This document shows, in pieces, positions 9,933-55,494 of a DNA stretch of 64,000 nucleotides (positions within the stretch are counted from its first letter, which is position 1; every line of letters starts with the position of its first letter). The notes below the pieces were generated by a model. It was given only the letters and a program-made list of their open reading frames with translations. It was not told the DNA's origin and did not search any database. Position numbers and translations under genes: made by a program. Source of the stretch: a virus (lineage: Duplodnaviria; Caudoviricetes); the IMG/VR virus record IMGVR_UViG_3300025809_001850, one strand, 5' to 3'.

Positions 9933-10388
9933 ATGGGATTAGATCAATACGCATACGCACGTCCACCTCGTAAGAGAAATTGTGACGAAGATGAACACTT
10001 AGAAGAATGGCGCAAGCATAATCGTTTGCAAGGCTGGATGGAACAACTATGGGAATCAAAAGGATGTCCTGTTCCTGCTACTTCTTATGACGAAGATGAA
10101 GACGAAGAGGATGAAGACGATTATTCAGATGGTGGTTTCAATGGTATTGAATTACAATTAGATGCTTCTGATATTGAGTATCTTGAAGAAGCAATTCTAA
10201 ATCAAGAACTTCCTGAAACAAGTGGTTTTTTCTTTGGAAGTGATTCATACACTTGGAATAAAGAAGGTGACGGAGAAGATAAAATTCAAGAAAATTATTA
10301 CTACAAAGAAATGGATTTGCAGTTTGTAGAAAACGCAAAACAAGCAATTCAAAAGAAATACAGAGTTTACTATAACTGCTCTTGGTGA
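9933..10388 (+). CDS. conserved phage hypothetical protein
   Basis: MGLDQYAY...WRKHNRLQGWM...YYNCSW pattern, common in phages. Confidence 0.75.
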   Translation: MGLDQYAYARPPRKRNCDEDEHLEEWRKHNRLQGWMEQLWESKGCPVPATSYDEDEDEEDEDDYSDGGFNGIELQLDASDIEYLEEAILNQELPETSGFFFGSDSYTWNKEGDGEDKIQENYYYKEMDLQFVENAKQAIQKKYRVYYNCSW

Positions 10389-10419
10389 GTGTTACTTAAA
10401 AACTGATAACGAATACGAA

Positions 10420-11082
10420 CTATAAAATCATATATTGAACATATTCTTGATTAGGATAATTCTCTAACAAAATATACTTCATTGTCTGAGGTTCTAATAT
10501 CAACCAACCTTGGTTAGTAAACACCAAGTTGACCATGTGTAATCCATTGCTTGCAGGAACTCCACCAAATTCGTTAACTTGACGAACAACTACAACTGCA
10601 ACACCCATTTCGAATTTATCACCACTTTTGTATGCTGATATACCCATAAGTGATTTGTATAACATTGCAAAGTTATCACAATCTAATGCAGGATGATTGT
10701 TTTCTTGACCACTTTGAATCCCTGCTTCAAATAAAAGTTTTTCAAACCAATTATTAAATTTGCGAAAGAAATAGTAATCAACATCACGATAACGAGCATC
10801 AAACAACACAACTCCAAAATCAGTTGGAACTTTAGTATCAACCCAATTATGTGATTTTTGCTGAGAGAAGCTTCTTCCTATGTCAAATCTATCAAGATAA
10901 TTCTTTGGATTAATTTTATGTTCAATGTTTTCTCCTTCCATTACAGGTATATCAATTAACTCACGCATATCAGTTTTTGTTTTGCACGAAGAACCTGCCA
11001 TAAGTACGATGGCAACACCTGCACATACAAACACTAAACAACTCCAACATATATTTTTAAATCTACTCTTACTCATAATCAT
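10420..11082 (-). CDS. putative lipoprotein with papain/transglutaminase-like Cys-His-Glu domain
   Basis: Signal anchor with GSSC; DCDNFA ... HMVN ... ILEPQT motifs. Confidence 0.5.
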   Translation of the reverse strand: MIMSKSRFKNICWSCLVFVCAGVAIVLMAGSSCKTKTDMRELIDIPVMEGENIEHKINPKNYLDRFDIGRSFSQQKSHNWVDTKVPTDFGVVLFDARYRDVDYYFFRKFNNWFEKLLFEAGIQSGQENNHPALDCDNFAMLYKSLMGISAYKSGDKFEMGVAVVVVRQVNEFGGVPASNGLHMVNLVFTNQGWLILEPQTMKYILLENYPNQEYVQYMIL

Positions 11083-11303: not shown

Positions 11304-12557
11304 ATGAAACGCAAACAAAATACCAATACTAATGATACAGGTGATACTGGTGATGCTAATGATGCTAATGATACTGGTGATGCTAATGATGCTAATGATA
11401 TGGACAGTGTAAATCACCCAACACCAAATCCAACCAGAATAGATTCTCAGTTGATTGAAGATGACTCTGACATAATGTCATTGAGTGATGTAAGGGACAC
11501 TCATCAACTACACAAATCAGCAATAAAGCGAGTAATTATAACAGGAGTGACAGGTCAAGACGGAAGTTTTATGGCAGATTATTTGTTGAAAAATACAGAT
11601 TGTATGGTGTATGGAGCAGTTCGTAGACTAAGTGTAAAAAATTACACGAACATTCATCATTTGAAACGAGAAGATCGTTTTCAACTTATCAACTTGGATT
11701 TAACTGATGATTATAGTATTCGTGACGCAATCACCGAAATCAAACCTCATTACTTTTTGAACTTTGCGGCTCAAAGTTTTGTGGATGGTTCTTGGGATTA
11801 TCCAATACAAACTTGGGATACAGATGCAACTGCGGTTTTGCATATGCTTGAAAGTATTCGTAAGTTTACTCCTTATTGTAGATTCTATAACGCAGGATCA
11901 AGTGAAGAATTTGGTGATGTTATTACAGATCCACAGAGTGAAGAACATCCACTTAGACCACAAAGTCCATACGGAGCAGCCAAAGCAGCTGCAAGGCATC
12001 TTGTGCGTGTTTATCGTGAGTCATACGATTTATATGCAGTTCAAGGTTGGTTGTTTAATCACGAAGGAACTCGCAGAGGCAAAGAATTTGTAACAAGAAA
12101 AATTACTCATACAATTGCTAAAATTAAACACGCACTTGAAAAGAATAAAAAATATGATGTATTAAAATTGGGAAATTTAGATGCTCAACGAGATTGGACA
12201 GATGCAGAAGACTTTATGTCGGGAGTATGGTTGATGATGAACCAAGATGCTCCTAAAAATTATGTTCTTGCAAGTGGTAAAATGAATAGTGTTCGTGAAT
12301 TTTTACAAGAAACTTTAAAATGTGCAAACATCAAACATAAAATAATTGGTGACGGTGAATATGAAAAGTTTTTAACCGAAGATGATAAACTCATAATGGA
12401 AGTTGATCCTAAATTTTATCGTCCTGCCGAAGTTCATAAATTAAGAGGAGATTGCACTCTTGCAGAAAACGAACTAGGATGGACTCGCATATACAATTTT
12501 AAGAAACTTGTAAAAAGAATGTACGAAAGTGATTATGAGCAACTTAAAAATAGATAA
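11304..12557 (+). CDS. gmd: GDP-mannose 4,6-dehydratase with acidic low-complexity N-terminal extension
   Basis: ITGVTGQDGS, AAQSFV, AGSSEEFG, PQSPYGAAK, LFNHE, GNLDAQRDW motifs. Confidence 0.95.
   Translation: MKRKQNTNTNDTGDTGDANDANDTGDANDANDMDSVNHPTPNPTRIDSQLIEDDSDIMSLSDVRDTHQLHKSAIKRVIITGVTGQDGSFMADYLLKNTDCMVYGAVRRLSVKNYTNIHHLKREDRFQLINLDLTDDYSIRDAITEIKPHYFLNFAAQSFVDGSWDYPIQTWDTDATAVLHMLESIRKFTPYCRFYNAGSSEEFGDVITDPQSEEHPLRPQSPYGAAKAAARHLVRVYRESYDLYAVQGWLFNHEGTRRGKEFVTRKITHTIAKIKHALEKNKKYDVLKLGNLDAQRDWTDAEDFMSGVWLMMNQDAPKNYVLASGKMNSVREFLQETLKCANIKHKIIGDGEYEKFLTEDDKLIMEVDPKFYRPAEVHKLRGDCTLAENELGWTRIYNFKKLVKRMYESDYEQLKNR
11328..11399 (+). repeat. eight tandem 9-bp units (ACTGGTGAT / GCTAATGAT types)
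   Basis: Encodes TND-TGD-TGD-AND-AND-TGD-AND-AND; contains a 27-bp higher-order repeat twice. Confidence 0.9.
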
Positions 12558-13518
12558 AACTAGCAAAATATACGTCGCAGGATCATCCGGAATGGTCGGT
12601 TCTGCGGTTGTTAGAAAATTGCAAGCAGAAAATTATACTAATATAGTAACATCAAGAAGCAAAGATGTAGATTGTCGTGATCAATTTGTTGTAAATGCTT
12701 TTTTTGCAAAACATAAATTTGATGTGGTTGTAATAGCAGCCGCAAAAGTTGGTGGAATTATGGCAAACAACGATTTTCGTGGTGACTTCATTTATGATAA
12801 TCTTCAAATTCAAACGAATTTAATTCATAGTGCAAAAACACACGGTGTTAAAAAACTGATATTTCTTGGATCATCGTGTATATATCCAAAACAAGCACCA
12901 CAACCAATCAAAGAAGAATATTTATTAACTTCAGAACTTGAATATACAAATGAACCTTATGCTATTGCTAAAATAGCAGGATTAAAAATGTGTGAAAGTT
13001 ATTACAAACAATACGATAGCAACTTTTATTCTATTATGCCTTGTAATTTATATGGATACAATGATAACTTTGATTTAAAATCAAGTCACGTGTTACCTGC
13101 ACTAATTCGTAAGTTTCACGAAGCAAAATTGAACAATGATGCAGAAGTAATAATGTGGGGAACAGGAAAACCAAGACGAGAGTTTATGTTTGTTGATGAT
13201 CTTGCAAACACAATTGAACATTGCATTCAAAGCATAAACGCAGACGATGTTTATACTGACACCAAAAGTTGTATGAACTTTGGAAGTGGTGAAGATATTG
13301 AAATTAAAGAACTTGCCGAATTGATCAAACAAATAGTTGGATTTCGTGGTAACATAAAACACGATACCACCAAACCAGACGGAACAATGAAAAAACTTAT
13401 GGATGTTTCATTTGCAAAAACACTTGGACTAGTTACAAAAACTTCATTGAGTGAAGGTTTAAAAAGCACGTACAATTGGTTTTTGCAAAATTATGCTAAC
13501 TCTGATATAAAACTTTAA
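12535..13518 (+). CDS. fcl: GDP-L-fucose synthase (GDP-4-keto-6-deoxymannose epimerase/reductase)
   Basis: AGSSGMVGSA, AAAKVGGI, FLGSSCIYPK, TNEPYAIAKIAG, MPCNLYG, SHVLPALIRKFH, WGTGKPRREF. Confidence 0.95.
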   Translation: MSNLKIDKTSKIYVAGSSGMVGSAVVRKLQAENYTNIVTSRSKDVDCRDQFVVNAFFAKHKFDVVVIAAAKVGGIMANNDFRGDFIYDNLQIQTNLIHSAKTHGVKKLIFLGSSCIYPKQAPQPIKEEYLLTSELEYTNEPYAIAKIAGLKMCESYYKQYDSNFYSIMPCNLYGYNDNFDLKSSHVLPALIRKFHEAKLNNDAEVIMWGTGKPRREFMFVDDLANTIEHCIQSINADDVYTDTKSCMNFGSGEDIEIKELAELIKQIVGFRGNIKHDTTKPDGTMKKLMDVSFAKTLGLVTKTSLSEGLKSTYNWFLQNYANSDIKL

Positions 13519-13525
13519 TTGCTCA

Positions 13526-14371
13526 ATGATAAAAACTTATACAACCGAATTGTGCGTATTTATGTTGGCCACCTCGTTTGAATGCAATGAAGGAGAACTA
13601 CAACGTGCAGTTGATTATTATTTGGCCAACATTGAAACTGATTCAAAATTTGATCTTTTAATTTGCCTTGATAATCTTCCAAAAAGAATACGAAGATTTG
13701 ATAGTTGGATTAATAATACCAAACGGCACGAAAATGTAAATGATGTAATTGTTAACAATTTAGAGATCCCCAAAGACGAAAATATTTATATCAAAAATTT
13801 AATTCCTTCGTTTGATTTAAGCAAACTTAATATGGGCAGATCACATGGAATCAATCATTTATTTTATGAAACTCTTGAATATCTGTTTACAACTAAATAC
13901 AAAAACTTTTTATTGTTGGAATGTGATACCAAACCAGTTACATCAAAATGGTATGATGTTTGCGTGAATCATTGCAAAACACACGATTTCTCTATAGCAG
14001 GTAGCAAATACAAAGGAGTTAAACGTGATTTTATTTTATCTAGATATTTCGGACCACACCTCAACGGAGTTGCTATATACAGAAACTGTACACGCACACA
14101 ACAAATGCTCAGAGACTCCAAATCGTTTTTAATAAAATCACTTGCAGATGATCACAAGTTACCCAAATCCAGACGTGTATATCGTGAGTTTATGAATTAT
14201 GATGTTGCGATTTATCTTCACTTAAAACGAATGAGATCATACACAGGATATCATGATACTAATTTCATAACCAATATCAGTTCCCCTGGAAACGAGAACA
14301 CTTCATTGCAATCTGTGCTACATGAATTTCCAGATACTCAAATACTGCATCAAAAAAATCTATACGAATAA
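13526..14371 (+). CDS. putative GT-A-like glycosyltransferase
   Basis: LLECD (DxD-like), AGSKYKG, HLNGVAIY, NYDVAIY; paralog of the N-terminal half of 14377..15915; sits in the glycan cluster. Confidence 0.5.
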   Translation: MIKTYTTELCVFMLATSFECNEGELQRAVDYYLANIETDSKFDLLICLDNLPKRIRRFDSWINNTKRHENVNDVIVNNLEIPKDENIYIKNLIPSFDLSKLNMGRSHGINHLFYETLEYLFTTKYKNFLLLECDTKPVTSKWYDVCVNHCKTHDFSIAGSKYKGVKRDFILSRYFGPHLNGVAIYRNCTRTQQMLRDSKSFLIKSLADDHKLPKSRRVYREFMNYDVAIYLHLKRMRSYTGYHDTNFITNISSPGNENTSLQSVLHEFPDTQILHQKNLYE

Positions 14372-14376
14372 TTCAT

Positions 14377-15915
14377 ATGAAGTTCGTTGATAAATTTACT
14401 TATACAAATGAGTTGTGTGTGTTTTATACAACAACACTAACTGAATTTAATAACGGAGCATTAACACGTTGTGTTGATCATTATATGAACAATATTCAAA
14501 CAAACTATAAGTTTGATTTGTTATTTTATTTTGATCAGTTTCCACGCAGGAAACGAAAGTTTTTTCGTGAATTAAATAAATTTAAGAAATACAAAAATAT
14601 AAACAATGTGTACATCATAAACAACGAAATTCCTGATGACGAAAACTTTTATTTCAATCGGAATGTTGAAAAACTAGATTTAAATAAATTTCCCCTTGGA
14701 GGTTCACAAGGAATCAATAGTCACTTTTATATATCAATCAATAATTTGTTTGAACGAAGTTATGAAAATTGTATGTTGTTGGAATCAGACACTTGTTCAG
14801 TAGGCAACGACTGGTTTGATGTGCTTCTTGAGTATTCTGTAAACACAGAGTTTGTAATTGCTGGTAGCAAGTATAAGGGTAGAAACAAAGAAGTTGTATT
14901 TAAAGAACACTACGGTGGCCACCACATAAATGGAGTTGCATTGTATAAAAACAATGATACAACGAAAAAGTTGATCCGAGCATCATATCAATTTTTGATA
15001 AATTCATTGCGAAAGGATTTCACAAAGTGTAAACGTCACAGACGATGTAACGGGTGTTTGAATTATGATGTAGCAATTTACTTGTATGCAAAAAAGAAAA
15101 ATTTATCGCATTTACTTCATGATACAAATTTCATTACAAATTTCAGATCAGATGATGATAATGACACCGAACTAAAAACAATAATGCTAAAGTATCCGGA
15201 AACACGAATTGTACACAAAAAAAATTTATATGATGAAGTTGATATAAAATCAACAATTAAAATATTAAAAGAGAATTCAGTATATAGAATTGCTGATTTA
15301 TTTTATATGGATGGTAACCGATGGGAGAAAGATAGAAGTAAAGTAATACAAAGTGAAGAATATAGTGATACCATATTGCACGATTATATGTTAAATAAAA
15401 ACAATGAATTTGATTACGATACATTTAAATCTATCACCCTAAAACATTCCGAAAAGTATGACCTAAAACCCAACGAAGATGATTTAGTTTTTCATTTACG
15501 ACTCGGAGATGTATTTGATATTAATGGTGAAACTAGAATATACAACAGAGCAGATTGGTCTTATCTTCAGTATAAAGTATTTTTTAGAAAAAACAGAGAA
15601 TTTTTAGAAACATTAAATAAGGTAAAAGTAGTTACTGCATTGCACTTTGGTTCTGATGAGTTAACAGGTGATTTCTATTATACAGATAATTACTATAACG
15701 AAAGCATGAAATTTTTTGATTATTTTTGTGGACGTTTACACGACTTTGGTTGTAGTGTTGATGTAATATCAAATGAAAATATTGATAAAGATATATGCTA
15801 CATGATGCAATCAACACACTTTGTACCTGGACTTACAAAGTTATCTACATTGATTTCAACGTGTATAGAAAATGATGCTAAAATATATCGTGAACCTATA
15901 CAAAAATACATTTAA
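14377..15915 (+). CDS. two-domain glycosyltransferase-like protein (GT-A-like plus GT11/fucosyltransferase-like)
   Basis: N-half: LLESD, AGSKYKG, HINGVALY, NYDVAIY. C-half: FHLRLGD and DKDICYMMQSTHFV, resembling GT11 motifs. Confidence 0.5.
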   Translation: MKFVDKFTYTNELCVFYTTTLTEFNNGALTRCVDHYMNNIQTNYKFDLLFYFDQFPRRKRKFFRELNKFKKYKNINNVYIINNEIPDDENFYFNRNVEKLDLNKFPLGGSQGINSHFYISINNLFERSYENCMLLESDTCSVGNDWFDVLLEYSVNTEFVIAGSKYKGRNKEVVFKEHYGGHHINGVALYKNNDTTKKLIRASYQFLINSLRKDFTKCKRHRRCNGCLNYDVAIYLYAKKKNLSHLLHDTNFITNFRSDDDNDTELKTIMLKYPETRIVHKKNLYDEVDIKSTIKILKENSVYRIADLFYMDGNRWEKDRSKVIQSEEYSDTILHDYMLNKNNEFDYDTFKSITLKHSEKYDLKPNEDDLVFHLRLGDVFDINGETRIYNRADWSYLQYKVFFRKNREFLETLNKVKVVTALHFGSDELTGDFYYTDNYYNESMKFFDYFCGRLHDFGCSVDVISNENIDKDICYMMQSTHFVPGLTKLSTLISTCIENDAKIYREPIQKYI

Positions 15916-15943
15916 CAAAATATATCTTTTAATTTTACATACA

Positions 15944-16804
15944 ATGAAACCATTACACCAACAACAAAATATTCCGTGCTTTTATCATGTTCCAAAGAAC
16001 GCAGGAACATATGTAACAAGCATCATGTTTTTGTATATTAGATTATTTAAACAAAAGTATACAAACTGGAATTCATTTGGTAAAGAAACTGGTAGAAATA
16101 TCGTAATACATAACGATAATAAAGAAATCGCACGAATAATCGCAGGTGATCCAAATTTTATATGCAATGAAAGTTTAATATTCAAACGAGGTGTAATTGA
16201 AGATGATACACATTATACAATCAATTTAAATGAATGTTCACATGATGCATTTGTTAACCTGAATATTTTTTCAATAATTATAGAAGCAGACGGATTTGTA
16301 TATCACGATCAAATCAAAAAGTTTTTTGAAAAATATAATTTAATTAATTTTATGATATTACGTGATCCGATTAAACGAGCAGTATCTTTTTTTGATTACA
16401 TAAATTCAGATAAAGCAAAACACGAACCAACTTACGGAATTATTCCAAATAAATTTTCAGAATATGCTAAAAGTGATTACACAGAAGATAGTTGGTTGAT
16501 ACGACAATTCAGCAAAGTGCAAAATTCTGTGGGAATTACTTTAAAAAATTATGTAGATGCATTTCACATTTTAAAAAAATTTAAGATATGTGACATCAAA
16601 AACACAAATAAATTTATAGATGATATATTCAAAAAATATCTGAATCTGAATTTAACAGAAAAACAAAAACAACAAAAAACTTGGGACATAATTTACAATT
16701 CTAAATCAAAAAGTTCTACAATAATTGACGAAGAATCACACAAACTATTGCAACAAAGAATGAAATACGATATTGAATTATACAACAAATTGTTATCATG
16801 CTAA
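15944..16804 (+). CDS. sulfotransferase-like protein (Sulfotransfer_2-like)
   Basis: HVPKNAGT (5'-PSB) and LRDPIKRAVSFFDY (3'-PB) PAPS-binding motifs. Confidence 0.7.
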   Translation: MKPLHQQQNIPCFYHVPKNAGTYVTSIMFLYIRLFKQKYTNWNSFGKETGRNIVIHNDNKEIARIIAGDPNFICNESLIFKRGVIEDDTHYTINLNECSHDAFVNLNIFSIIIEADGFVYHDQIKKFFEKYNLINFMILRDPIKRAVSFFDYINSDKAKHEPTYGIIPNKFSEYAKSDYTEDSWLIRQFSKVQNSVGITLKNYVDAFHILKKFKICDIKNTNKFIDDIFKKYLNLNLTEKQKQQKTWDIIYNSKSKSSTIIDEESHKLLQQRMKYDIELYNKLLSC

Positions 16805-16965
16805 TATCACACAAACATAAGTTCATCACATTTGATATTCCAAAGACTGGAACAACCTCTATTAACAATGCTATTGCTCGGGGTGATATTTTGGAAAAGC
16901 ATGATTTTAAAGTTCAGATGTCACACAGAGTCATTGAGTATTTCGGATATAAATTTGGAGCATAA
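16798..16965 (+). pseudogene. sulfotransferase head-to-tail deletion mini-gene (55 aa)
   Basis: MLISHKHKFITFDIPKTGTTS...IEYFGYKFGA: family N-terminus joined almost directly to family C-terminus. Confidence 0.75.
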
Positions 16966-16968
16966 GAA

Positions 16969-17520
16969 ATGATAAGTCATAAACATAAATTCATATTACT
17001 ACACGCAGGTAAGTGTGCGGGAAGTTCGGTCATAAATTGTCTTAATAATATTATCGATGAACCTAAAATTGAACTTCCTTGCAATCATCCAACTTTGTTA
17101 CAACTTCAGGAACTTGTTACAAAATCTAATCATAACATAAACGAGTATAAGTTAATTTGTATGGTGAGAAATCCATTTGATAGAATGGTTTCATGGTATA
17201 ATCATGCGGTGTATAGAGTTAAAACATTCTCCGGTTCATTTGAAGATTTTTGTGATGACAGACTTAGTGGTACATCCGAAAACTTAATACCCCCCTATAA
17301 CAAATGCAATCATGTTATTCGGTTTGAACATTTACACGATGATTTTGATAAATTTCTTGATATTATAGGTCTTCCTGCTCATAAATTACCCCACGAAAAT
17401 AAAAGTATGAGTAAACAAAAAATTCATTACTCAGTCTTACATACAGAAAAAACGAAACAAATTGTATCTGAGTATTTTTCGTCAGTTATTGAAATGTTCA
17501 ACTATAAGTTTGGGGAATAA
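16969..17520 (+). CDS. sulfotransferase family 2 protein
   Basis: MISHKHKF..HAGKCAGSS, VRNPFDRMVSWY, IRFEHL, C-terminal FNYKFGE. Confidence 0.85.
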   Translation: MISHKHKFILLHAGKCAGSSVINCLNNIIDEPKIELPCNHPTLLQLQELVTKSNHNINEYKLICMVRNPFDRMVSWYNHAVYRVKTFSGSFEDFCDDRLSGTSENLIPPYNKCNHVIRFEHLHDDFDKFLDIIGLPAHKLPHENKSMSKQKIHYSVLHTEKTKQIVSEYFSSVIEMFNYKFGE

Positions 17521-17522
17521 AA

Positions 17523-18173
17523 ATGCTAATATCACACAAACATAAATTCATCACAATTGATATTCCAAAAACTGCTACAAGGTCTTTGCGTGAAACTTTA
17601 TTGCCACAAAATGTAATTGATATTGTAGGTGATCCAAATTTTAATGCAGATTTTTACCAACATGGAACTGCAATGCAATGTTCTGAATCGTTGCAAAAAT
17701 TAAATAAAAACTTTTCAGATTATTTTTCATTTGTTATTGTTCGCAATCCGTGGGATCGGTATTATAGTTTTTTTAAATACTTTAAAGAATATGCGGAAAA
17801 ATATAAAAACAAAGACGCAAGTATAAAATGGAATACACTTGAAATTACTCAAGGTAAACTGTGCGAAGAATTATTCGCGAATAAATCAGATGAAATTGTA
17901 TTGCGAAACATCATAATAAATAATGAATGTCAAAGTGGTTATTATGCAAATGAAAAAAATGAAATTATGGTATCTCATATAGCAAAATTTGAAAATCTAA
18001 ACAAAGAATTTGAATTGCTATGCAATCAAGTAAATGTAAATTATTCACCGTTATTCCACGGAAATAAAAGTGTTATAAAAAGTAGTTATTATAATATTTA
18101 TACCAAGGAAACTATCAATTTAGTCGCAGAAAAAGAAAAGAATGTAATACAATTAAAAGGATACACATATTAA
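17523..18173 (+). CDS. sulfotransferase family 2 protein
   Basis: MLISHKHKF..DIPKTATRS, VRNPWDRYYSFF, KFENL. Confidence 0.85.
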   Translation: MLISHKHKFITIDIPKTATRSLRETLLPQNVIDIVGDPNFNADFYQHGTAMQCSESLQKLNKNFSDYFSFVIVRNPWDRYYSFFKYFKEYAEKYKNKDASIKWNTLEITQGKLCEELFANKSDEIVLRNIIINNECQSGYYANEKNEIMVSHIAKFENLNKEFELLCNQVNVNYSPLFHGNKSVIKSSYYNIYTKETINLVAEKEKNVIQLKGYTY

Positions 18174-18920
18174 ATGAAAATTTACACTTACTATCAGAAT
18201 ATAAATCACGATAAACAACCTGAATTAATTGATTTATGGAAACTAAGTTGGTCTCGACAAGGTTACGAACCAATTGTTCTAAATTTAGAAGATGCAAAAA
18301 AGCATTCTTATTTTGAAACTCTTGATACAGAAATGCGTAAAATTTTCAAAGAAATTACAAACAAGGAAATTTCTGATTACGGAATGAGTTGTTGGTTTCG
18401 TTGGTTGGCATATGCAACCCAAGAAGACGAAAAGTTTTATGTTTCTGATTATGATGCAATCAATATTAATTTTCCAATCACAGAACCTAGCAATCAACTT
18501 CATTTAATGGATAATGCTTGTCCCTTTCTTGCAAGTGGAACACCAAAACAATTTGAAAATTTATGCAAAGCATTTGTGGAACTTAGCAATCAAAGAATTG
18601 ATATTTTAAAACAACAAGCAGATCATTATCATGATCAAGAATTTTTTCAATATAATTTTATTCCAAATTTTAATGATTCGTATGAAGATCTAAGAAATCA
18701 ACATGGCATTTTAATGACACGAACTAGATCACACGAAGGTGGAATTGGGGATTGGTATCTTCCCAATGATAAAAAAAATCCAAGTCCAACAACTTATGGA
18801 GTTTATCATGTTTCTCACAGTAATTGTAGCGTATACAAAACCACAAATACACAAGATAGTTCACTTTCGGCCGAAGAACTCAGAATTTATTTAATAAAAG
18901 ATTTACTTAAAATAAAATGA
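18174..18920 (+). CDS. putative glycosyltransferase-like protein, duplicate copy A
   Basis: WKLSW..QGYEP, CWFRWLAY, SDYD (DxD-like); context in the glycan cluster. Confidence 0.5.
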   Translation: MKIYTYYQNINHDKQPELIDLWKLSWSRQGYEPIVLNLEDAKKHSYFETLDTEMRKIFKEITNKEISDYGMSCWFRWLAYATQEDEKFYVSDYDAININFPITEPSNQLHLMDNACPFLASGTPKQFENLCKAFVELSNQRIDILKQQADHYHDQEFFQYNFIPNFNDSYEDLRNQHGILMTRTRSHEGGIGDWYLPNDKKNPSPTTYGVYHVSHSNCSVYKTTNTQDSSLSAEELRIYLIKDLLKIK

Positions 18921-19389
18921 AAATTTACACTTACTATCAGAATATAAATCACGATAAACAACCTGAATTAATTGATTTATGGAAACTAAGTTGGTCTCGA
19001 CAAGGTTACGAACCAATTGTTCTAAATTTAGAAGATGCAAAAAAGCATTCTTATTTTGAAACTCTTGATACAGAAATGCGTAAAATTTTCAAAGAAATTA
19101 CAAACAAGGAAATTTCTGATTACGGAATGAGTTGTTGGTTTCGTTGGTTGGCATATGCAACCCAAGAAGACGAAAAGTTTTATGTTTCTGATTATGATGC
19201 AATCAATATTAATTTTCCAATCACAGAACCTAGCAATCAACTTCATTTAATGGATGCCCATGTACCATGTTTTGCAAGTGGATCACCAAAGCAATTTGAA
19301 AATTTATGCAAAGCATTTGTGGAACTTAGCAATCAAAGAATTGATATTTTAAAACAACAAGCAGATCATTATCATGATCAAGAATTTTT
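18174..19389 (+). repeat. direct repeat with 743-bp period
   Basis: 18174-18512 = 18917-19255 (339 bp identical) and 18549-18646 = 19292-19389 (98 bp identical). Confidence 0.95.
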
Positions 19390-19564
19390 CTTGTACAACT
19401 CGGAGGAATTAAAGAATCATCACAATATCGTTATGACACGTGATAGAAATAAATTATTATCACCATACATTAAGGATTGTTTGACTCCGATTATTCACTT
19501 TAGCCATTTTAGGTGTAAAACTAACTCTAATAGAATAAAATTAATTAAGGAAATCTTATCATGA
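18917..19564 (+). CDS. putative glycosyltransferase-like protein, duplicate copy B
   Basis: First 113 codons identical to copy A; different C-terminus. Confidence 0.5.
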   Translation: MKIYTYYQNINHDKQPELIDLWKLSWSRQGYEPIVLNLEDAKKHSYFETLDTEMRKIFKEITNKEISDYGMSCWFRWLAYATQEDEKFYVSDYDAININFPITEPSNQLHLMDAHVPCFASGSPKQFENLCKAFVELSNQRIDILKQQADHYHDQEFFLYNSEELKNHHNIVMTRDRNKLLSPYIKDCLTPIIHFSHFRCKTNSNRIKLIKEILS

Positions 19565-20139
19565 TACTATCACACAAATATAAATTCGTCTGCCTAAATC
19601 CACCAAAAACTGGATCAGGATTTAGAGAACAACTATTAAAGGAATGTGCTGATGTAAGCATAATCACACATGAACCTTTAAAACTAAGACATTGGAATTC
19701 AACTCAAGCATCCAACTACATTAAAAGTATAAACAAAGACCCCAATGATTATTATTGGTTTACTTTTGTTAGAAATCCGTGGGAACGAATGATATCTTGG
19801 GTTAATATGAGAAAAAATCATATATTAAATGGTAAAAATTCGGAAAATATTGATAGTAACAAGTTTATTGTTGAAACCCTTGAAGAACATCAGTTTAAAG
19901 ATTACATATATCGTGATGGTAAACTATTAGAGTTTATTGGTTCACTTGAAAACATCACAGAAGATCTTAATTTTGTGTTAAACAAATTAAATATTAATAT
20001 ACCTATTAGCACTCGAAAAGATAAATATAAAAAAGATTTTAAAGATGATATTCGTGACAACATGAGTCGGAAAACAATAGAACTAATTAGCAATGTAGAA
20101 AAAGAAGTTATAGAAATGAAAAAGTATAAATTTAAATGA
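19561..20139 (+). CDS. sulfotransferase family 2 protein
   Basis: MILSHKYKF..NPPKTGS, FVRNPWERMISW, IGSLENI. Confidence 0.85.
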   Translation: MILSHKYKFVCLNPPKTGSGFREQLLKECADVSIITHEPLKLRHWNSTQASNYIKSINKDPNDYYWFTFVRNPWERMISWVNMRKNHILNGKNSENIDSNKFIVETLEEHQFKDYIYRDGKLLEFIGSLENITEDLNFVLNKLNINIPISTRKDKYKKDFKDDIRDNMSRKTIELISNVEKEVIEMKKYKFK

Positions 20140-20789
20140 TTAACATAAATGCATACAACTACCACTTTTCTATTGGTTCTAATTGTCGTGTGGCCACTTC
20201 TTTGATCGAATTGAATTTGAGAAAATTTTCAACTAATTTTGATTGGGGATTTTTCACTCCAAAAAGTTTTTACTTAGCATATATAGACAATTTTCAAGAG
20301 TTAATCAATTTCTCTCACAACAAATTGTCTCAAAGTGAAAATACATATCAACATATTATTGACAACTGGATTTCAAAATACAATTTTAAACCTTATATGT
20401 TTAGATTTGCACATCGTTCTCATAAAAACGAAGATACCGTAAGAAGACGAGCAATTAGATTAAAAGATACCATTGAAAATGGTAACAATAAAATATTGTT
20501 CATATATAATCATATACCAATACACCTCATGAGTGACAGAGCTCATAAAAAATGGTCAAACAAACTCCTCAAAGAAGAAGGGGAAGATATTTTTGACTTA
20601 AAATATTTACAATTATTAAAAGACGTATTACCCGACAATGTAGATCTCTTGTTATTGCATTATGAAGAATTGAATATGAAATTTAAAAATGTGTATTGTC
20701 AATTTATAAATTATGAAGAATCCGAAGTGAAACATAAAGACTGGGATCAACAGTTAATTATTAAACACATTAAATCGCTTTTAAATTAA
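20136..20789 (+). CDS. DUF1796-like putative papain-like protein
   Basis: SIGSNC...L...LRKFSTNFDW ... FAH ... RRAIRL pattern. Confidence 0.6.
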   Translation: MININAYNYHFSIGSNCRVATSLIELNLRKFSTNFDWGFFTPKSFYLAYIDNFQELINFSHNKLSQSENTYQHIIDNWISKYNFKPYMFRFAHRSHKNEDTVRRRAIRLKDTIENGNNKILFIYNHIPIHLMSDRAHKKWSNKLLKEEGEDIFDLKYLQLLKDVLPDNVDLLLLHYEELNMKFKNVYCQFINYEESEVKHKDWDQQLIIKHIKSLLN

Positions 20790-20824
20790 AAAATATGCTT
20801 TCTTAAAGAACGAAAAAAACAAAA

Positions 20825-21535
20825 ATGAAAAAGAGGCCAAAAAATACAGACGATTGTTTATACAACTTAGTGGATATAATAAAATTTAACCATTGTGCTT
20901 GTATGGATGTGTGGAAAGAGGACAGTATAGCGAGAATGTATTATGAACAATCATCAAGTCCCAAGAAGAACTTTAACTCCTCATGGTGGGTGGATTTTGA
21001 TTGTTTACATAAAATTGTTCAAGAAAAAACTAAAAATAACGAACAGCCGTCGGGTGATGTATTAACAATACACGTAAGACTTGGTGATTTATTAGTACCT
21101 TCCTTGATACATACAGTTCCTGATGTTAACCAATATGAAAATTTAATCAAGAGAGCTGTTGTAGAACACGGTATTGTCAAATGCGATATTTATTACGGTA
21201 ATCATGTGGGTAAGTTTGAAAATGAGTCGCAACAATACATACACAAATTAATAAAAATTATTAAAAAATTAGGTCTTGAACATGAATTTATATCCAAATC
21301 GGTAGATGAAGATTTTTGTTCTTTGGCTACAAGCAAACACTACCTGCCCTCTATCAGAGGATTTTCGTGGTTGACTGGTACAATCAATCCGAATAATGTT
21401 ATTTGGGACATAAACAAAGGTAAAGAGTTTTCTTGGGATGTAGTTGCAAAAACTGGAAGATTCGTAACTGAAAATGTTGGTAAATACCTTAAAGGAATTG
21501 AGTATCAACGAAAATTAAATAAACAAAAAAAATAA
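20825..21535 (+). CDS. GT11/alpha-1,2-fucosyltransferase-like protein
   Basis: IHVRLGD and DEDFCSLATSKHYLPSIRGFSW resemble GT11 motifs (HVRRGD; DL.LMS.C.H.I...STFSW). Confidence 0.5.
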   Translation: MKKRPKNTDDCLYNLVDIIKFNHCACMDVWKEDSIARMYYEQSSSPKKNFNSSWWVDFDCLHKIVQEKTKNNEQPSGDVLTIHVRLGDLLVPSLIHTVPDVNQYENLIKRAVVEHGIVKCDIYYGNHVGKFENESQQYIHKLIKIIKKLGLEHEFISKSVDEDFCSLATSKHYLPSIRGFSWLTGTINPNNVIWDINKGKEFSWDVVAKTGRFVTENVGKYLKGIEYQRKLNKQKK

Positions 21536-21603
21536 TGAAAAACATCACAAACCTTGCCCAGTGGATGGTGTACAAAAGACCATAGTATGGAAGGATATTG
21601 AAT

Positions 21604-22203
21604 ATGATAAGTCATAAACATAAATTTATTTTCATACACATTAATAAAACAGGTGGATCAAGCATTGAGAGGGCCATTGACCCGAGTATTCCTACGCACA
21701 ACAATAAAACTAACCGAGTCTGCCCGAGCGCAACTGTTGGTAACACATATCACGAGACTAAACATTTCCCAGCTAGGAAAATGTGGGCGAACCACCCGGA
21801 TTGTTTTGACCTGTATTTTAAATTTACATTCGTAAGAAACCCGTGGGCTACAGAAGCATCACTTTACAATTGGTTCAAGTTTATTGGAGTTGCCAGAGGT
21901 ACTAAACTCTCATTTAAAGAGTTTTTATATCAGAGAGTTAAGTTAAAAAGAATGGGATTTAGAATAATGTTAGGTAATAGCAAACAATATTCTCTTATGG
22001 ATTACATCGGGCGGTTTGAAAACCTACAAGAAGACTTCAACATAATCTGTGACAAAATTGGAATTCCACAACAACAACTTCCACACAAAAACAAAATAAA
22101 ACACAAACATTACACCGAATACTACGATGATGAAACTCGTCAAATTGTTGCGGAAAAGTATGCAGAAGACATCGAGTATTTCGGGTATAAATTTGGAGAA
22201 TAA
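21604..22203 (+). CDS. sulfotransferase family 2 protein
   Basis: MISHKHKF..HINKTGGSS, FVRNPW, IGRFENL, HYTEYYD...IEYFGYKFGE. Confidence 0.88.
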   Translation: MISHKHKFIFIHINKTGGSSIERAIDPSIPTHNNKTNRVCPSATVGNTYHETKHFPARKMWANHPDCFDLYFKFTFVRNPWATEASLYNWFKFIGVARGTKLSFKEFLYQRVKLKRMGFRIMLGNSKQYSLMDYIGRFENLQEDFNIICDKIGIPQQQLPHKNKIKHKHYTEYYDDETRQIVAEKYAEDIEYFGYKFGE

Positions 22204-22206
22204 ATT

Positions 22207-22872
22207 ATGAAAAAGTATTACGGACAAAAAGGACAAGATAAATGGGTTATTAACGAAGTGTTGAACGAGAAAAAAAACGGATTCTTTTTAGATCTAGCTG
22301 CAACAAATGGGATTGAACTTAGTAATACATTTATTTTGGAAAAAAAATATAACTGGACTGGAATTGCAATAGAACCCAATCCAAATTTTTACAAACAATT
22401 AGTTAAAAATAGAAATTGTATTACAGAAAATCATGTGGTTTCCAATTGTCATGAAAAGGTTAAAGTTAGAATTGATAACGGTGTCGGTGGTGGAATTGTA
22501 GCAGACGATACAGATAATTCTATGTTAATTCGTGGAGAACAATTAAAGAAGGAGCAATGTAAAATTATAGAGATGGAATCAGTTTTGCTACAAGATATCC
22601 TTGATAAACATAACGCTCCGAAAGAAATAGATTATTGGTCACTCGACATCGAAGGTTCAGAAGAAAGAGTGATTAGTAGTTTTGATTTCTCCAAGTATGA
22701 GTTTGGATGCATAACAATAGAAAGGCCAACACCTCTCTGTAACAAAATACTACAAAATGCAGGATATGTGTTTGTTAAGAATTGTGATAATGATTCCTTC
22801 TATGTGTCTCATAAATACTCAAAGGACTTAAAATTACAACCTTTTGAGCAGATACCCAAAAAAAGGTGCTAA
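22207..22872 (+). CDS. FkbM-family SAM-dependent methyltransferase
   Basis: [38 protein letters not shown]. Confidence 0.85.
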
Positions 22873-22888
22873 ACTTATAGAACAACAC

Positions 22889-23008
22889 ATGATAATATCA
22901 CATAAACATAAACACTACACCGAATATTACGATGAAGAAACAAAATCTATCGTTGCGGAAAAATACGCAAAAGACATTGAGTATTTTAATTATGAATTTG
23001 GTAAGTAA
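22889..23008 (+). pseudogene. sulfotransferase head-to-tail deletion mini-gene (39 aa)
   Basis: MIISHKHK fused to [31 protein letters not shown]. Confidence 0.8.
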
Positions 23009-23014
23009 TTTAAC

Positions 23015-23043
23015 TTGCAAATAAATAAAAAGCATAATACAAT
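23015..23043 (+). promoter_or_regulatory. sigma70-type promoter
   Basis: TTGCAA-17 nt-TACAAT, 6 nt before ATG 23050. Confidence 0.6.
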
Positions 23044-23049
23044 GATAGA

Positions 23050-23493
23050 ATGTTTGAAGATATTGTAATATGTGAACTAAATCATATTGATCCTGGTGGA
23101 AAGGAATATTGCAATCCTCAAGAAATTGTTATCGGTGATACAAAGTCTAATGGAATATTAATTTCGTTGTTATTCAGAAACGAAGAAAAACGAAAAGGTT
23201 TATCACAAAGACAATGTGAACTTCCACTTGAAATTTGTGCGGAACTTATTCATAATGATAAAACTGAGTATAAAGATAAATACGATATACAAACGGGAGT
23301 AGAATTTACTATAACTGATAACAATGAAATGTATAAAATGCTTATTGGAAGTAACGGAGAACATTTCCATTATTTTACAAATGTTCCTGCAATAAACAAT
23401 ACAACTGATTTTGGTGACACAATATTTTTGAGTTTTCCACATACAGTTGAAGGATTCATCTACAAAGACACAAACTACAAAATTTTCAAATGA
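23050..23493 (+). CDS. hypothetical protein
   Basis: 147 aa ORF, ATGA overlap with DHFR. Confidence 0.65.
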   Translation: MFEDIVICELNHIDPGGKEYCNPQEIVIGDTKSNGILISLLFRNEEKRKGLSQRQCELPLEICAELIHNDKTEYKDKYDIQTGVEFTITDNNEMYKMLIGSNGEHFHYFTNVPAINNTTDFGDTIFLSFPHTVEGFIYKDTNYKIFK

Positions 23494-23984
23494 ACCAATT
23501 ACCAAAATACTCATTAATAGCTGCAATGGATCATAACCGTGTTATAGGTAACGATGATAAAATTCCGTGGAAAGCAAAAGGAGAACAAGCATTGTTTAAA
23601 CGCATCACAACGAACTCTGTGGTGATTATGGGCAGAACTACATACGAAACTCTTCCTAATGCGTTACCGAACCGTTACAACGCAGTATTAACCACCAATG
23701 CACATTATGAAGCACCCGGTTGTTTTACATTCAATAGTTTTGAACAAGCATTAATAAGCATGAACTCAGAATTTCCAACTTGCAAGATTTTCGTTATTGG
23801 AGGTGCATCGCTATACGAGCAAACGATAAAAAATGCGGAAGAACTTCATATTACTCGTATAGAAAGAGATTACGAAGGTGATGCTTATTTTCCTAAATAC
23901 AACAACGAGTTGTATAATTTACACAATATAGAATGGTATGATACAAATATGCGTTATACCTACTATCATTATATCCGCAAATAA
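23490..23984 (+). CDS. folA: dihydrofolate reductase (DfrA-like active-site motif)
   Basis: IAAMDHNRVIG..IPW..GEQ.LFK..T...VIMGRTTY..LP.R..IGGASLY..GDAYFP. Confidence 0.95.
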   Translation: MNQLPKYSLIAAMDHNRVIGNDDKIPWKAKGEQALFKRITTNSVVIMGRTTYETLPNALPNRYNAVLTTNAHYEAPGCFTFNSFEQALISMNSEFPTCKIFVIGGASLYEQTIKNAEELHITRIERDYEGDAYFPKYNNELYNLHNIEWYDTNMRYTYYHYIRK

Positions 23985-24019
23985 TTCGCATTCCAATCAG
24001 TCTTGATATATATTAGTAT

Positions 24020-24646
24020 ATGTCGAGCAAAATTTTTTTAGTATACAGTGGCTTATTGATTTTCACTAATATACTATTTTCTCGTATTTCTCCTCAAATG
24101 TCCGACTTTTTATGCGGATGTGAATATTGCGAAACCGTTGATCGTCATTCACCTTTGAATATTGGATATCATTTTTCACGATGTCATTCGTGGAAAAAAT
24201 CGTGGGCAAAATCAAGAAACGCAATGATGAATACTCAGAAACCCGATGTGGGCATTCCAGTTAAAGATACTTTACCCGATCATTCGAGAAAAATTTTTGG
24301 GGAAAACAATAATGATGATAATAGTAATAACATTCATAAAAAGGATACTACATTAAAAGAACCCAATATGAATACTATAGATGATATATATAATGATTAT
24401 CAATGGAGATACATAGAAACACAAGGATGGACATATTCTACTACACATCAAAGTACAACAACTACAGATGGATGGCTATATCGTGAAGATTTAGGATGGG
24501 TATGGACTTTCACAGAATCGAGGAAATTTTTATATAGTGAACAGTATGGATGGTTTTATTCAATGCGGTATAACGACCGTAATTTGTTATATTATTACGA
24601 CCGTAGATATTGGTTGTATGCGTATGATTTTTGGTGGAAGAAATAG
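24020..24646 (+). CDS. exported protein with Trp/Tyr-rich C-terminal module
   Basis: Hydrophobic N-terminus; GWLYREDLGWVW, LYSEQYGWFY repeats. Confidence 0.6.
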   Translation: MSSKIFLVYSGLLIFTNILFSRISPQMSDFLCGCEYCETVDRHSPLNIGYHFSRCHSWKKSWAKSRNAMMNTQKPDVGIPVKDTLPDHSRKIFGENNNDDNSNNIHKKDTTLKEPNMNTIDDIYNDYQWRYIETQGWTYSTTHQSTTTTDGWLYREDLGWVWTFTESRKFLYSEQYGWFYSMRYNDRNLLYYYDRRYWLYAYDFWWKK

Positions 24647-24649
24647 TAT

Positions 24650-25990
24650 GCAATGATTCACTCAAAAGAAATAAATGCTTGCTTTCGCAACCATTTGATT
24701 TCTTCTTCTTTCATCATCTCAGGTCATTCGTTTAAATGCTTTTTGCGTATCGTTTTTTGCCCTCCGAATTACCCTTTAAAATGCGACTAGATATGGCTAT
24801 ACAAAATACCCTTTTTTTCGTGGAAATAATGTATAATGATAATAAGGGTAATAGTAATAGTAATAGCTGTTATACAAGTAGATGATATACGCATAACGCA
24901 TATAGACATGATATAGGTAATAGATTAAATGAAATAGTAGCAGTATCGTCTTACCCGTCTATAAATACTTAAAGACTGCGTACTGCGTATATTATCAGTT
25001 AGTTGATGCCATACATGAACTTATCTTGATTGATGATACTGATGATAATTGATAATTGATGATAATATATGTTAGTTGATATAACCTGATGATAAGATAA
25101 TAACATAATAAGGTAATAGGGTAATAGAGGTAATAGTAATAGCATAAGATAGACAATGATAGACTTCATATAGGTAGGGCTATATGTCCACAAAAAACCT
25201 TTTTTACCTTGTTGTGCAAGTATACCCTTTAAATGGGTGTCAAATGCGTTCTAGGTGTCAAGGTGTATGTATTGATAGGTATATGCATTTATTTATGTAT
25301 AATATAATAGCTTTAAGGATTAGACGGATTTGATAGCCTACAACACCCTACATTTAATATAGGGGTGTCTCGGATGCCCTCCACTATTTTACTATAGCCA
25401 ACCATATCAAAAAGCACCACCTCTGTCAAGCCTTTTCCCCACACCACCTCATCTATTAATTAAACTAATGATAACACCCATACTACCCAACCCAACGGCC
25501 TGATATATTTCACCTAGCACCTAGAAAAAATAAAATGCGATTAATCATAGCTGGTAAAATGCTGAATACCAATTACTTAGAATAGCCCTATAAATTATTT
25601 TTTTCAGGTGCTGGGTGAAATAGGGAAACAAGTGCGTATTGACTATTACTATTATCATGTGTATGTATATTACTATTACTATTACTACTACCTTTACTAT
25701 TATCATTATTAGTAGTTGACTTTTCGCAAAAAATTTGGTACAATCATGGGATTGTGGGAGGGAGCAAAGCTAGACATAAAATGCCTTCATTTTTCTTGGG
25801 GAAATATCTCATAAAAAAACTAAACAATATTACTTGACTTGTTGCACCTTATTGATGTAGATTATATCATGACTGAATGACACATAATAGCTATTGTACT
25901 GCTTACCTCCGGATGCATATGGGTGTTCATAGAATTACTAAAAAACAAATAGAGTTTTTATAATAGTGTTGACATCATTAATGAAACCTG
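24650..25990. other. long non-coding low-complexity island; candidate replication origin or genome-end region
   Basis: No credible ORF over ~1.3 kb; 8 GTAATAG copies (24848-25142), 3 inverted CTATTAC copies (25643-25685), TGATGATA runs. Confidence 0.5.
25716..25744 (+). promoter_or_regulatory. sigma70-type promoter with no sizeable downstream ORF
   Basis: TTGACT-17 nt-TACAAT with TGn. Confidence 0.7.
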
Positions 25991-25997
25991 CTATTGT
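25969..25997 (+). promoter_or_regulatory. sigma70-type promoter
   Basis: TTGACA-17 nt-TATTGT with TGn, followed by ATGAGAGA. Confidence 0.7.
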
Positions 25998-26005
25998 GTT
26001 TATAT

Positions 26006-54602: not shown

Positions 54603-55494
54603 TAAAGTCAAAAAATTTATTTGATTGTACACGCAAGTCATCAAGTGAGCAATAGTCAGGAACTTCATACTCTCCTTCTTTGCGGAATACCATAACGTAT
54701 TCGTGTATCTTGCTTGTGTATCTTTTGCTTGCTACCTTACCTGCTTGCAACGGAGCAAATGGACTGATGTTCTTCATTATGATTGTATCGTGGTGAATCA
54801 ACTTCTCTTTGGTAAACAAAGAAATCAAGTCAGAATGAAACGAACGAAATCCACTACCTTTGGGACATCTCCAATCACCGACAACCCATACACAGAATGC
54901 TCCTGGTTTCAGTACACGATTAATGTGGTATCCACAATAACCGATTTGCTTCAAAAACTTTTCGTAAGTTTCGCAATCACTTAATTGATTTTTCGTACTT
55001 TCATACTCTTCAAGATTATGATACGGAGGACAAGTAAACACCAGATCAGCAGTTTCATTTTGTGTGTGAAGCATTTCTGTTCCATCACAATTAAAAAGTT
55101 TAGGCGATACCCCCAACTTTTTAAAATGCTCCGTAACTCGTTTATATGTCGTTGGAGAAATTTCGTAACCTTCGTATTGCCTTTCCATCTTGGATGCCAC
55201 TACCGCACGGGTAGCACGACCTGCGAAGGGGTCTACAACCACACTTCCCTTCATGCTCCAGTAACGAAGTATCTGCTCTGCTACTCCTGCGTGGAACTCA
55301 CTAAACTTTAATCCAGGAAGATACTTGGCATCATCACTTCGTCTGCTTTCGTTTTCTCCGTCATCAAGATATGCTTCTTTCCAAGATGCCTTCGACTCTT
55401 TGGTTGGTTCAAGAATACTCATAGGCAACCAACCGAATTGCTCATCGATTCGACAATCGTTTCTAATGGGTAATACTTGTTTATATACCTTCAT
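54595..55494 (-). CDS. DNA methyltransferase-like protein (alpha order)
   Basis: VVDPFAG (SAM-binding) followed by FTCPPY (catalytic-like). Confidence 0.8.
   Translation of the reverse strand: MKVYKQVLPIRNDCRIDEQFGWLPMSILEPTKESKASWKEAYLDDGENESRRSDDAKYLPGLKFSEFHAGVAEQILRYWSMKGSVVVDPFAGRATRAVVASKMERQYEGYEISPTTYKRVTEHFKKLGVSPKLFNCDGTEMLHTQNETADLVFTCPPYHNLEEYESTKNQLSDCETYEKFLKQIGYCGYHINRVLKPGAFCVWVVGDWRCPKGSGFRSFHSDLISLFTKEKLIHHDTIIMKNISPFAPLQAGKVASKRYTSKIHEYVMVFRKEGEYEVPDYCSLDDLRVQSNKFFDFNE

Follow-up and report, generated by a model that had tools for sequence, protein, structure and literature searches.

The sulfotransferase island of an uncultured marine phage, at 16798–23008 of a 64,000-nucleotide stretch of viral DNA (IMG/VR record IMGVR_UViG_3300025809_001850; Duplodnaviria, Caudoviricetes; the whole 64 kb are called the window below), is in our reading probably a hyperplastic region of the ordinary T4-like kind, which is filled with glycan-modification genes and shaped by the gain, loss and decay of whole genes. 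The conserved ends of its sulfotransferase genes would then be enzyme motifs, and its two mini-genes remnants of longer genes. An earlier note on this DNA, made from the letters alone, had described an array of cassettes whose conserved 5' ends (heads) and 3' ends (tails) act as crossover sites, so that catalytic cores and passenger genes can be swapped, duplicated or excised like an accordion, with the mini-genes as scars. The region is one run of genes on the plus strand; in the following, its five sulfotransferase genes are called Z, B, C, D and E and the mini-genes A and F (Table 1).

Results

All six heads of the form M(I/L)(I/L)?SHK(H/Y)K that had been listed for the region (at 16798, 16969, 17523, 19561, 21604 and 22889) and all four tails of the form IE(Y/M)F.Y.FG(E/A/K) (ending at 16965, 17520, 22203 and 23008) are present. 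When both expressions were run over the six frames of the window, exactly 6 heads and 4 tails were returned, and 200 shuffles gave none. The same ends recur widely among homologous proteins. A search with E gave 5,638 homologous proteins at E<1e-5, and nearly all of the best 120 of them carry the head M-I-S/N/D-H-K-H-K-F-I-F-I/V-H-I-P-K-T-G-G-T-S-I-E; at their C-terminal ends they share a stretch from Y-D-D-E-T-R/K to F-G-E, and their middles diverge. Head and tail motifs were found on 178 IMG/VR stretches and on 69 in genomes of many bacterial phyla, the motif-bearing genomes and metagenome-assembled genomes being assigned to Flavobacteriaceae, Cyanobacteria, Verrucomicrobiota, Rubrobacteraceae, Thermodesulfobacteriota and others. 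Because homologues in many phyla have these motifs in common, we read the conserved ends around a divergent middle as a property of the enzyme family and not as modules specific to this locus.

The family head reads M-I-S-H-K-H-K-F-I-F-I-H-I-P-K-T-G-G-T-S and the family tail H-Y-T-E-Y-Y-D-D-E-T-...-D-I-E-Y-F-G-Y-K-F-G-E, and a second invariant block, F-V-R-N-P-W-x-R...S, follows about 75 residues into the protein. We take the P-K-T-G-G-T-S loop to be the 5'-phosphosulfate motif and R-N-P-x-x-R...S the 3'-phosphate motif, which together bind 3'-phosphoadenosine 5'-phosphosulfate (PAPS). Both motifs are found in B–E and are invariant or nearly so across the family alignment; A retains the first one only and F neither. 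The Pfam profile Sulfotransfer_2 (PF03567, gathering cut-off 22 bits) matches B, C, D and E above its cut-off and Z at the border, and gives no match to A and F. The encoded enzymes are predicted to be PAPS-type sulfotransferases. On another phage-like contig (L163, 6497–7285), an Inositol_P gene (CysQ-like, possibly a phosphatase of adenosine 3',5'-bisphosphate, PAP) stands beside a sulfotransferase island with a head-tail mini-open reading frame (mini-ORF); this gene would fit real PAPS-dependent chemistry.

The AlphaFold2 model of E has a mean predicted local distance difference test score (pLDDT) of 74, with the tail as its best-predicted part (pLDDT 88–90). The top Foldseek matches of the model are sulfotransferases, all of them weak (E 0.19 or worse, template modelling score 0.43 or less), and a sequence search of the PDB gave weak sulfotransferase matches as well (best E 0.026). 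We dropped a structural explanation of the tail drawn from these matches, which are too weak to carry it. The full genes B, C, D and E share 24–31% amino acid identity with one another, and with identity no higher than this they are old paralogues or separate acquisitions and not recent duplicates. The accordion-like amplification of sulfotransferases proposed earlier is accordingly not visible among these paralogues.

Both mini-genes are unchanged in 7–8 independent assemblies, and Logan contigs of independent runs span their junctions. They are not assembly artefacts, which was one way in which the earlier proposal could have failed. F has the architecture described for it, a 39-residue protein in which the head is joined to the tail at HKHK/KHKH: it reads MIISHKHK/HYTEYY..., where the gene at 21604 has ...KHKHYTEYY. 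The microhomology at this junction measures 9–11 nt and is A/C-rich. The F tail is 77% identical in nucleotides to the E tail and 92% identical to a tail of the related contig L009.

For A, a counterpart lies on L014, a 40-kb long-read contig with 70–90% nucleotide identity to the window. Directly upstream of the C orthologue, it holds a full-length A-type gene (10001–10585) that has the A-type N-terminus and an E-type tail and is interrupted by sequencing-error frameshifts. Additionally, a sibling of A in L013 is deleted differently, with its join at N-K-T-N-H-K-H, and also carries a frameshift. Since this full-length counterpart and this differently broken sibling exist, A is an internal-deletion remnant. 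It is thus not a chimera of the 17523 head and the 21604 tail, its own full-length paralogue surviving in L014. A full-length counterpart of F was not found at the matching position in the relatives.

Such remnants recur. P0033, a metagenomic protein 88% identical to E, shows another in-frame internal deletion. P0197 (MISHKH/YTEYY...) is an independent head-tail join at the same place as in F, present on 11 contigs; in the three that we examined, it is flanked by a GT25 gene on one side and a large sulfotransferase-like gene on the other. A mini-ORF search was made with the 54-residue TTG-start form of the 39-residue F protein. In all, more than 10 independent head-tail mini-ORFs with varied junctions were found in other marine contigs (counted were L069, L075, P0128, P0132, P0174, P0181, P0188, P0197, P0201 and P0235), several of them joined at an HKH microhomology, and tail-only and head-only remnants were found as well. 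We read A and F as decay products left behind by internal deletions. A head-head or tail-tail crossover cannot make a head-tail gene, so the mini-genes are not products of homologous crossover, and the scars of the earlier note become illegitimate head-to-tail deletions. We also saw two metagenomic short ORFs, P0133 and P0199, that start as the N-terminus of another gene and pass in frame into the tail of a sulfotransferase right at (K)HKHY; the donors are an RmlD-like epimerase and a 241-residue gene family, and the fusions look like deletions that crossed gene borders.

We then asked of the nucleotides what the protein motifs leave undecided. In the E-type genes of the window and L009, identical residues of the head use the same codon in 94 of 184 cases, against 91 expected from codon usage, and those of the middle in 161 of 318 cases, against 160 expected. 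The family was analyzed with about 160 non-redundant viral genes, nearly all pairs of which do not exceed 40% identity in the core; by profile columns, the codon choice for the consensus residue was compared with the genes' own background usage, the departure being given as Kullback-Leibler divergence (KL) in bits. The mean KL is 0.06 bits in the head (columns 1–25) and 0.05 bits in the middle (columns 26–121), followed by 0.12 bits in columns 122–156 and 0.21 bits in columns 157–192, the last 36 codons. Head conservation is therefore protein-level only, and the codons of the heads give no signal in excess of protein constraint. End conservation at the protein level alone had been named as a finding that would overturn the cassette proposal; this applies to the head, but not to the tail.

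Single columns of the tail reach p 1e-39, for example Thr164 ACC, Glu184 GAG, Leu152 CTT, Ala176 GCG and Gly191 GGA. In 89% of 108 viral genes the last Gly is encoded by GGA or GGG, compared with a background of 49%, and the next ATG lies mostly −1 to +7 nt from the stop of tail-bearing viral genes. The Gly-Glu pair at the end is encoded as GGAGAA, with the ATG of the following gene usually a few bases away; the tail end is therefore predicted to double as the ribosome-binding site of the downstream gene, which accounts for part of the codon signal. The rest of the codon signal is spread across about 40 codons. The stem that can be drawn in the tail (TTGCG-N8-CGCAA, 5 bp, GC, V175–A180) has no significant covariation. 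The Y-K-F codons of the tail (window 22180–22190 and the family tails) read TATAAATTT, near the T4 late-promoter core TATAAATA; about half of the family has E for K.

Between close relatives the tails behave differently. In pairs that are 80–95% identical in the core, codon differences at identical residues amount to 0.166 in the tail versus 0.120 in the core, and since synonymous change in the tail is not reduced between close orthologues, direct selection on the tail sequence is disfavoured. In 10 of 90 close pairs, which involve at least three separate genes, the identity of the tail lies at least 8 points under that of the core; the heads gave no such case. Distant genes are thus similar above saturation and close genes excessively divergent, as exchange or conversion of the last ~120 nt within a shared set of tails would make them. 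We treat this modest signal as a lead. Contigs from other genomes stack 3–10-fold on the two tail bins of the window; sequences that resemble the tails at 90% likeness or more are therefore plentiful in the same waters. We rejected raw tail identity (up to 93% where the cores are 19% identical in amino acids) as evidence of exchange, as identical residues and codon bias already give about 85%.

The three nucleotide matches that had been reported between gene ends are exact as counted: the first 23 nt of 16969 and 21604 are identical, 16798 agrees with 17523 at 49 of 52 nt at the 5' end, and 16798 agrees with 21604 at 30 of 33 nt at the 3' end. The 49/52 match, between the heads of A and C, goes beyond chance: of the 15 codons that could differ synonymously, 13 are identical (p about 0.001). 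The 23-nt identity is within what chance allows (p about 0.02 for a single pair, with 15 pairs), and so is the 30/33 match, where both tails are near the modal tail sequence of the family. These two were rejected as evidence of exchange, family-modal codons being sufficient to explain them.

Gene order is not fixed among related genomes (a fixed order had been named as another finding that would refute the cassette array): L005, L009/L036 and L014 differ from the window in order or content. L005 is 99.8% identical to the window across 11 kb and has an extra 291-residue sulfotransferase upstream of Z, bounded by ~9–10 nt of microhomology at two start codons. It then switches inside the F tail, within a 38-nt identical stretch (Table 1), to L009-type sequence at 99.2% identity, and past the junction it carries a 241-residue gene and an inverted sulfotransferase. 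This is the only direct case of a parent switch inside a tail. L009, which is 99.98% identical to a 146-kb IMG/VR contig sampled as L036, has eight sulfotransferases in 10 kb and shares with the window only C and its neighbour. The C orthologues are 90% (L014) and 74% (L009) identical in nucleotides. L014 is without B, D, E and the fucose genes, B being missing between the A-type and C genes. Finally, a contig of run X11 has one mismatch to the window across 19360–21577 and continues with unrelated sequence just before E.

Further variation was seen around these genes. Homologues of window 9933–10905 lie downstream of the sulfotransferase cluster in L014 (13641–14924) and L009 (13951–14373) and upstream of it in the window; judged by gene order, either the cluster or these genes has changed sides. 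In all four runs compared in this way, one contig agrees with the window as far as 15596, where it departs from it, and a second contig starts with unlike sequence and agrees from 17945 on. A relative in the same samples apparently differs from the window between these two points, both of which lie inside genes and not in heads or tails. The FkbM gene lacks cover in runs X11 and X12, which we did not use as evidence. Most contig joints were set aside as well: their sides measure under 30–60 nt at 90% likeness and probably stem from the heads and tails of other genomes.

Turning to the setting, the gene content of the window is T4-like, with rIIA (30478–32736), rIIB (33235–34788) and a gp43-type DNA polymerase (55494–58001, minus strand), and we assign it on this basis to an uncultured marine T4-like phage. 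The public runs that contain the region are all marine or seawater metagenomes. The nearest isolate, Microcystis phage Mel-JY01, has a polymerase that is just 47% identical in amino acids, and the DNA of the region gave no match in 50,697 phage records. Contigs of 171–481 kb carry identical or near-identical copies of the region. Several large contigs (L001, L002, L005 and L006; 171–481 kb), which come from different assemblies, stop within or at the border of the island (window 11600–26000), which suggests that strain variation makes the assembly graph branch there. Downstream of the island, the assemblies differ in length or sequence in a repeat-rich non-coding region (window 25899–25953 versus L001 10175–10276), and a 100-N scaffold gap lies nearby in L001.

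The island begins with genes of GDP-fucose type and is probably devoted to a sulfated, likely fucose-containing glycan. Z departs from the other sulfotransferases in its head (MKP...) and contains PKNAGTY. Among the passengers, the Pfam matches agree with the earlier assignment of the FkbM gene and of the DUF1796 gene. The two genes previously read as glycosyltransferases (18174–18920 and 18917–19564) have no Pfam match even at E<5. They arose by a 743-bp tandem duplication (18169–19654) and are identical over ~300 nt, then different. In L003 and L005 this duplicated gene is single-copy, which may be assembly collapse or a copy-number polymorphism.

Table 1. Genes and short elements of the island, with window coordinates
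Feature	Coordinates	Strand	Basis
Two genes, GDP-sugar dehydratase and epimerase-reductase (GDP-fucose type), at the head of the island	11304–13518	+	Pfam PF16363, PF01370, PF04321 on identical genes in L002/L005/L006
Two paralogous genes, function unassigned, 281 aa and 512 aa	13526–15915	+	ORFs; no Pfam match; linked by direct repeats D17, D19
Divergent sulfotransferase Z	15944–16804 (likely start 15944; longest ORF from 15872)	+	PF03567, 21.1 bits, under the 22-bit cut-off
Mini-gene A, 55 aa: first ~44 sulfotransferase residues fused in frame to the last 10 tail residues	16798–16965	+	
Sulfotransferase B, 183 aa	16969–17520	+	PF03567, 46.5 bits
Sulfotransferase C, 216 aa, divergent tail	17523–18173	+	PF03567, 36.1 bits
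Tandem gene pair of unknown function, 248 aa and 215 aa (18174–18920, 18917–19564)	18174–19564	+	743-bp duplication, repeats D1/D2
Sulfotransferase D, 192 aa	19561–20139	+	PF03567, 30.4 bits
Passenger genes: DUF1796 protein, 217 aa (20136–20789), and 236-aa gene	20136–21535	+	PF08795, 24.1 bits; no Pfam match for the 236-aa gene
Sulfotransferase E, 199 aa, canonical family member with full head and tail	21604–22203	+	PF03567, 50.4 bits
Last E tail codons F-G-E (with GGAGAA), stop, and ATG of the next gene	22192–22209	+	tail end as predicted Shine-Dalgarno sequence of the downstream gene
FkbM-type methyltransferase	22207–22872	+	PF05050, 52.3 bits
Mini-gene F, 39 aa: 8-residue head fused in frame to 31-residue tail	22889–23008	+	HKHK/KHKH microhomology junction
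38 nt of the F tail, shared without a difference by the window, L005, L009 and L011	22949–22986	+	

Discussion

Taken together, these data suggest the following course of events. The island runs from the GDP-fucose-type genes into anciently diverged sulfotransferases, interleaved with a methyltransferase and genes of unknown function. The enzyme family would hold head and tail constant and leave the substrate-facing middle free to vary. Microhomology-mediated internal deletion may then strip a full-length paralogue of its catalytic core and leave both ends in frame. Such remnants could linger as a deletion that stays within one gene spares the neighbours and would keep the tail-borne ribosome-binding site, and with it the close coupling to the gene that follows. 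Turnover would proceed by whole-gene gains, losses and replacements between co-circulating relatives; T4-like phages generally carry their own recombination machinery, so that the earlier note's remark that no dedicated recombinase is seen raises no difficulty. Finally, exchange or conversion within a pool of 3' ends of ~120 nt may supply short, perfectly identical segments through which homologous recombination could link different cassettes.

This last step leads to a bolder proposal, which we put forward as possible but tentative. The last ~120 nt would be a portable homology module, embedded in coding sequence and common to many marine phages, which carries the ribosome-binding site of the next gene and is kept similar by recombination or conversion. 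Tail-to-tail segments, each made of a passenger and the next sulfotransferase core, would then be cassettes that co-infecting phages can exchange. If true, this is a protein-coding analogue of the T4-type promoter early stem-loop (PeSL) shuffling cassettes, and one that diversifies a sulfated glycan.

Several observations weigh against these readings. The L005 junction lies on a single short-read contig, which runs for only 2 kb past it, and its parents co-occur in samples, so that an assembly chimera is possible; the Logan unitigs break within the 38-nt repeat and are silent on this point. The cases of tail replacement are few, and the pairs are not independent. A same-codon comparison within versus between genomes, again with the ~160 viral genes, gave 0.60 versus 0.58, which is no sign of general concerted evolution of the tails. 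Junctions fall at sulfotransferase stops in 36 of 136 cases against 3.7 expected, a count that is biased, the loci having been fished by the tail motif and many of them beginning at contig ends, and that we do not use as support. Lastly, the retention of in-frame remnants may in part reflect ascertainment, as remnants come to notice when they form ORFs.

The strongest form of the cassette idea, in which both ends are recombination modules, head-head and tail-tail crossovers swap cores and passengers in an accordion array and the mini-genes are scars, we consider unlikely. It is true that whole-gene insertions and deletions have their junctions at gene ends, that the L005 junction falls inside a tail, that the heads of A and C agree above the codon-bias expectation, that the tails have a codon consensus of their own and are at times replaced, and that the gene duplicated over 743 bp is single-copy in two contigs. 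The motifs, however, coincide with the gene ends, and selection for intact neighbours alone would place the surviving junctions there. In addition, the heads carry no nucleotide signal beyond protein constraint, paralogues with 24–31% identity leave no room for recent amplification, a head-tail gene cannot come from head-head or tail-tail exchange, A has its own full-length ancestor type, and the junctions of the remnants lie at many different positions. What stands of the earlier array is thus a plastic island with whole-gene gain and loss, junctions at gene ends and a signal in the tails; the role of the heads, the recent swapping of cores and the accordion amplification do not stand.

Two further explanations concern single parts of the picture. 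It seems quite unlikely to us that an embedded element under direct selection (a ribosome-binding site, promoter or RNA structure), and not recombination, lies behind the conserved nucleotides of the tail. The final GGAGAA codons with an ATG a few bases on, the resemblance (and resemblance only) of the Y-K-F codons to the T4 late-promoter core and the 5-bp GC stem that can be drawn across V175–A180 all fit it, but the codon anomaly extends over ~40 codons, far beyond the last two, the covariation of the stem is not significant, and E for K in half of the family breaks the promoter-like word. Such an element also predicts reduced synonymous divergence of the tail in close orthologues, contrary to what is seen. 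We regard it as improbable that the mini-genes are functional micro-proteins, in which the ~31-residue tail, a predicted two-to-three-helix unit, modulates sulfotransferases or another partner. A and F are in frame, with start and stop, and constant across the 7–8 assemblies; tail-bearing ORFs of 37–70 residues recur, some at a fixed position (P0197 on 11 contigs, P0201 on 5), and the tail is the part of E predicted with the highest pLDDT. Yet the compared copies are near-identical strains, whose constancy says little about selection, junctions and retained lengths vary widely (10 tail residues in A, 31 in F), and frameshifted, tail-only and head-only siblings exist. We therefore keep to the reading of an ordinary hyperplastic region with enzyme motifs and remnants.

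Conclusion

In summary, gene ends that resemble recombination modules are here largely ordinary enzyme motifs, and the mini-genes decay products. The non-trivial lead is a 3' module that may have a history separate from the rest of its gene; if confirmed, shuffling cassettes would extend from intergenic signals to coding sequence. Sulfotransferases occur commonly in the genomes of marine phages. Phages with up to eight of them per 20 kb, as among the relatives, may make or modify sulfated glycans and diversify them rapidly, and such variation would bear on host recognition, superinfection exclusion and marine sulfur-carbon chemistry.

How does the island compare with known systems? Its proteins resemble the carbohydrate sulfotransferases of Pfam PF03567 (for example, chondroitin 4-sulfotransferases) in the above-threshold match, in both motifs standing in the expected order and in the best, though weak, fold matches being sulfotransferases. 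They are much shorter, though, with 183–216 residues against a model of 252 positions, and have a distinctive conserved C-terminal module without a solved relative. Gene accordions, in which one gene is tandemly amplified and collapsed under selection, are known from poxviruses. The island shares with them tandem paralogues and one 743-bp duplication of possibly varying copy number, but its sulfotransferases are far from near-identical, and only that unrelated 743-bp pair fits.

The function of phage sulfotransferases "remains unclear" (PMC10580990); that paper reports single Sulfotransfer_3 genes, in contrast to the five sulfotransferases and two remnants within 7 kb found here and the still larger sets of the relatives. 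Like the glycan and lipopolysaccharide gene clusters of marine phage genomes, the island has sugar-nucleotide, transferase and sulfotransferase genes as auxiliary functions. The T4-type hyperplastic regions with PeSL-mediated modular shuffling (Arbiol et al. 2010, PMC2839356; Comeau et al. 2014, PMC4122927) likewise hold non-essential genes between T4-like core blocks, and their close relatives also differ by whole-gene insertion, deletion and replacement. PeSLs are intergenic cassettes of an early promoter and a stem-loop terminator, proposed as crossover points at gene boundaries (PMC2839356, PMC4122927). In our case, the candidate homology is coding, namely the 3' ~120 nt of one enzyme family, and the sole stem that can be drawn in it has 5 bp, unlike the intergenic promoter and terminator of a PeSL. 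With this difference in mind, PeSL-mediated shuffling is the closest described system.

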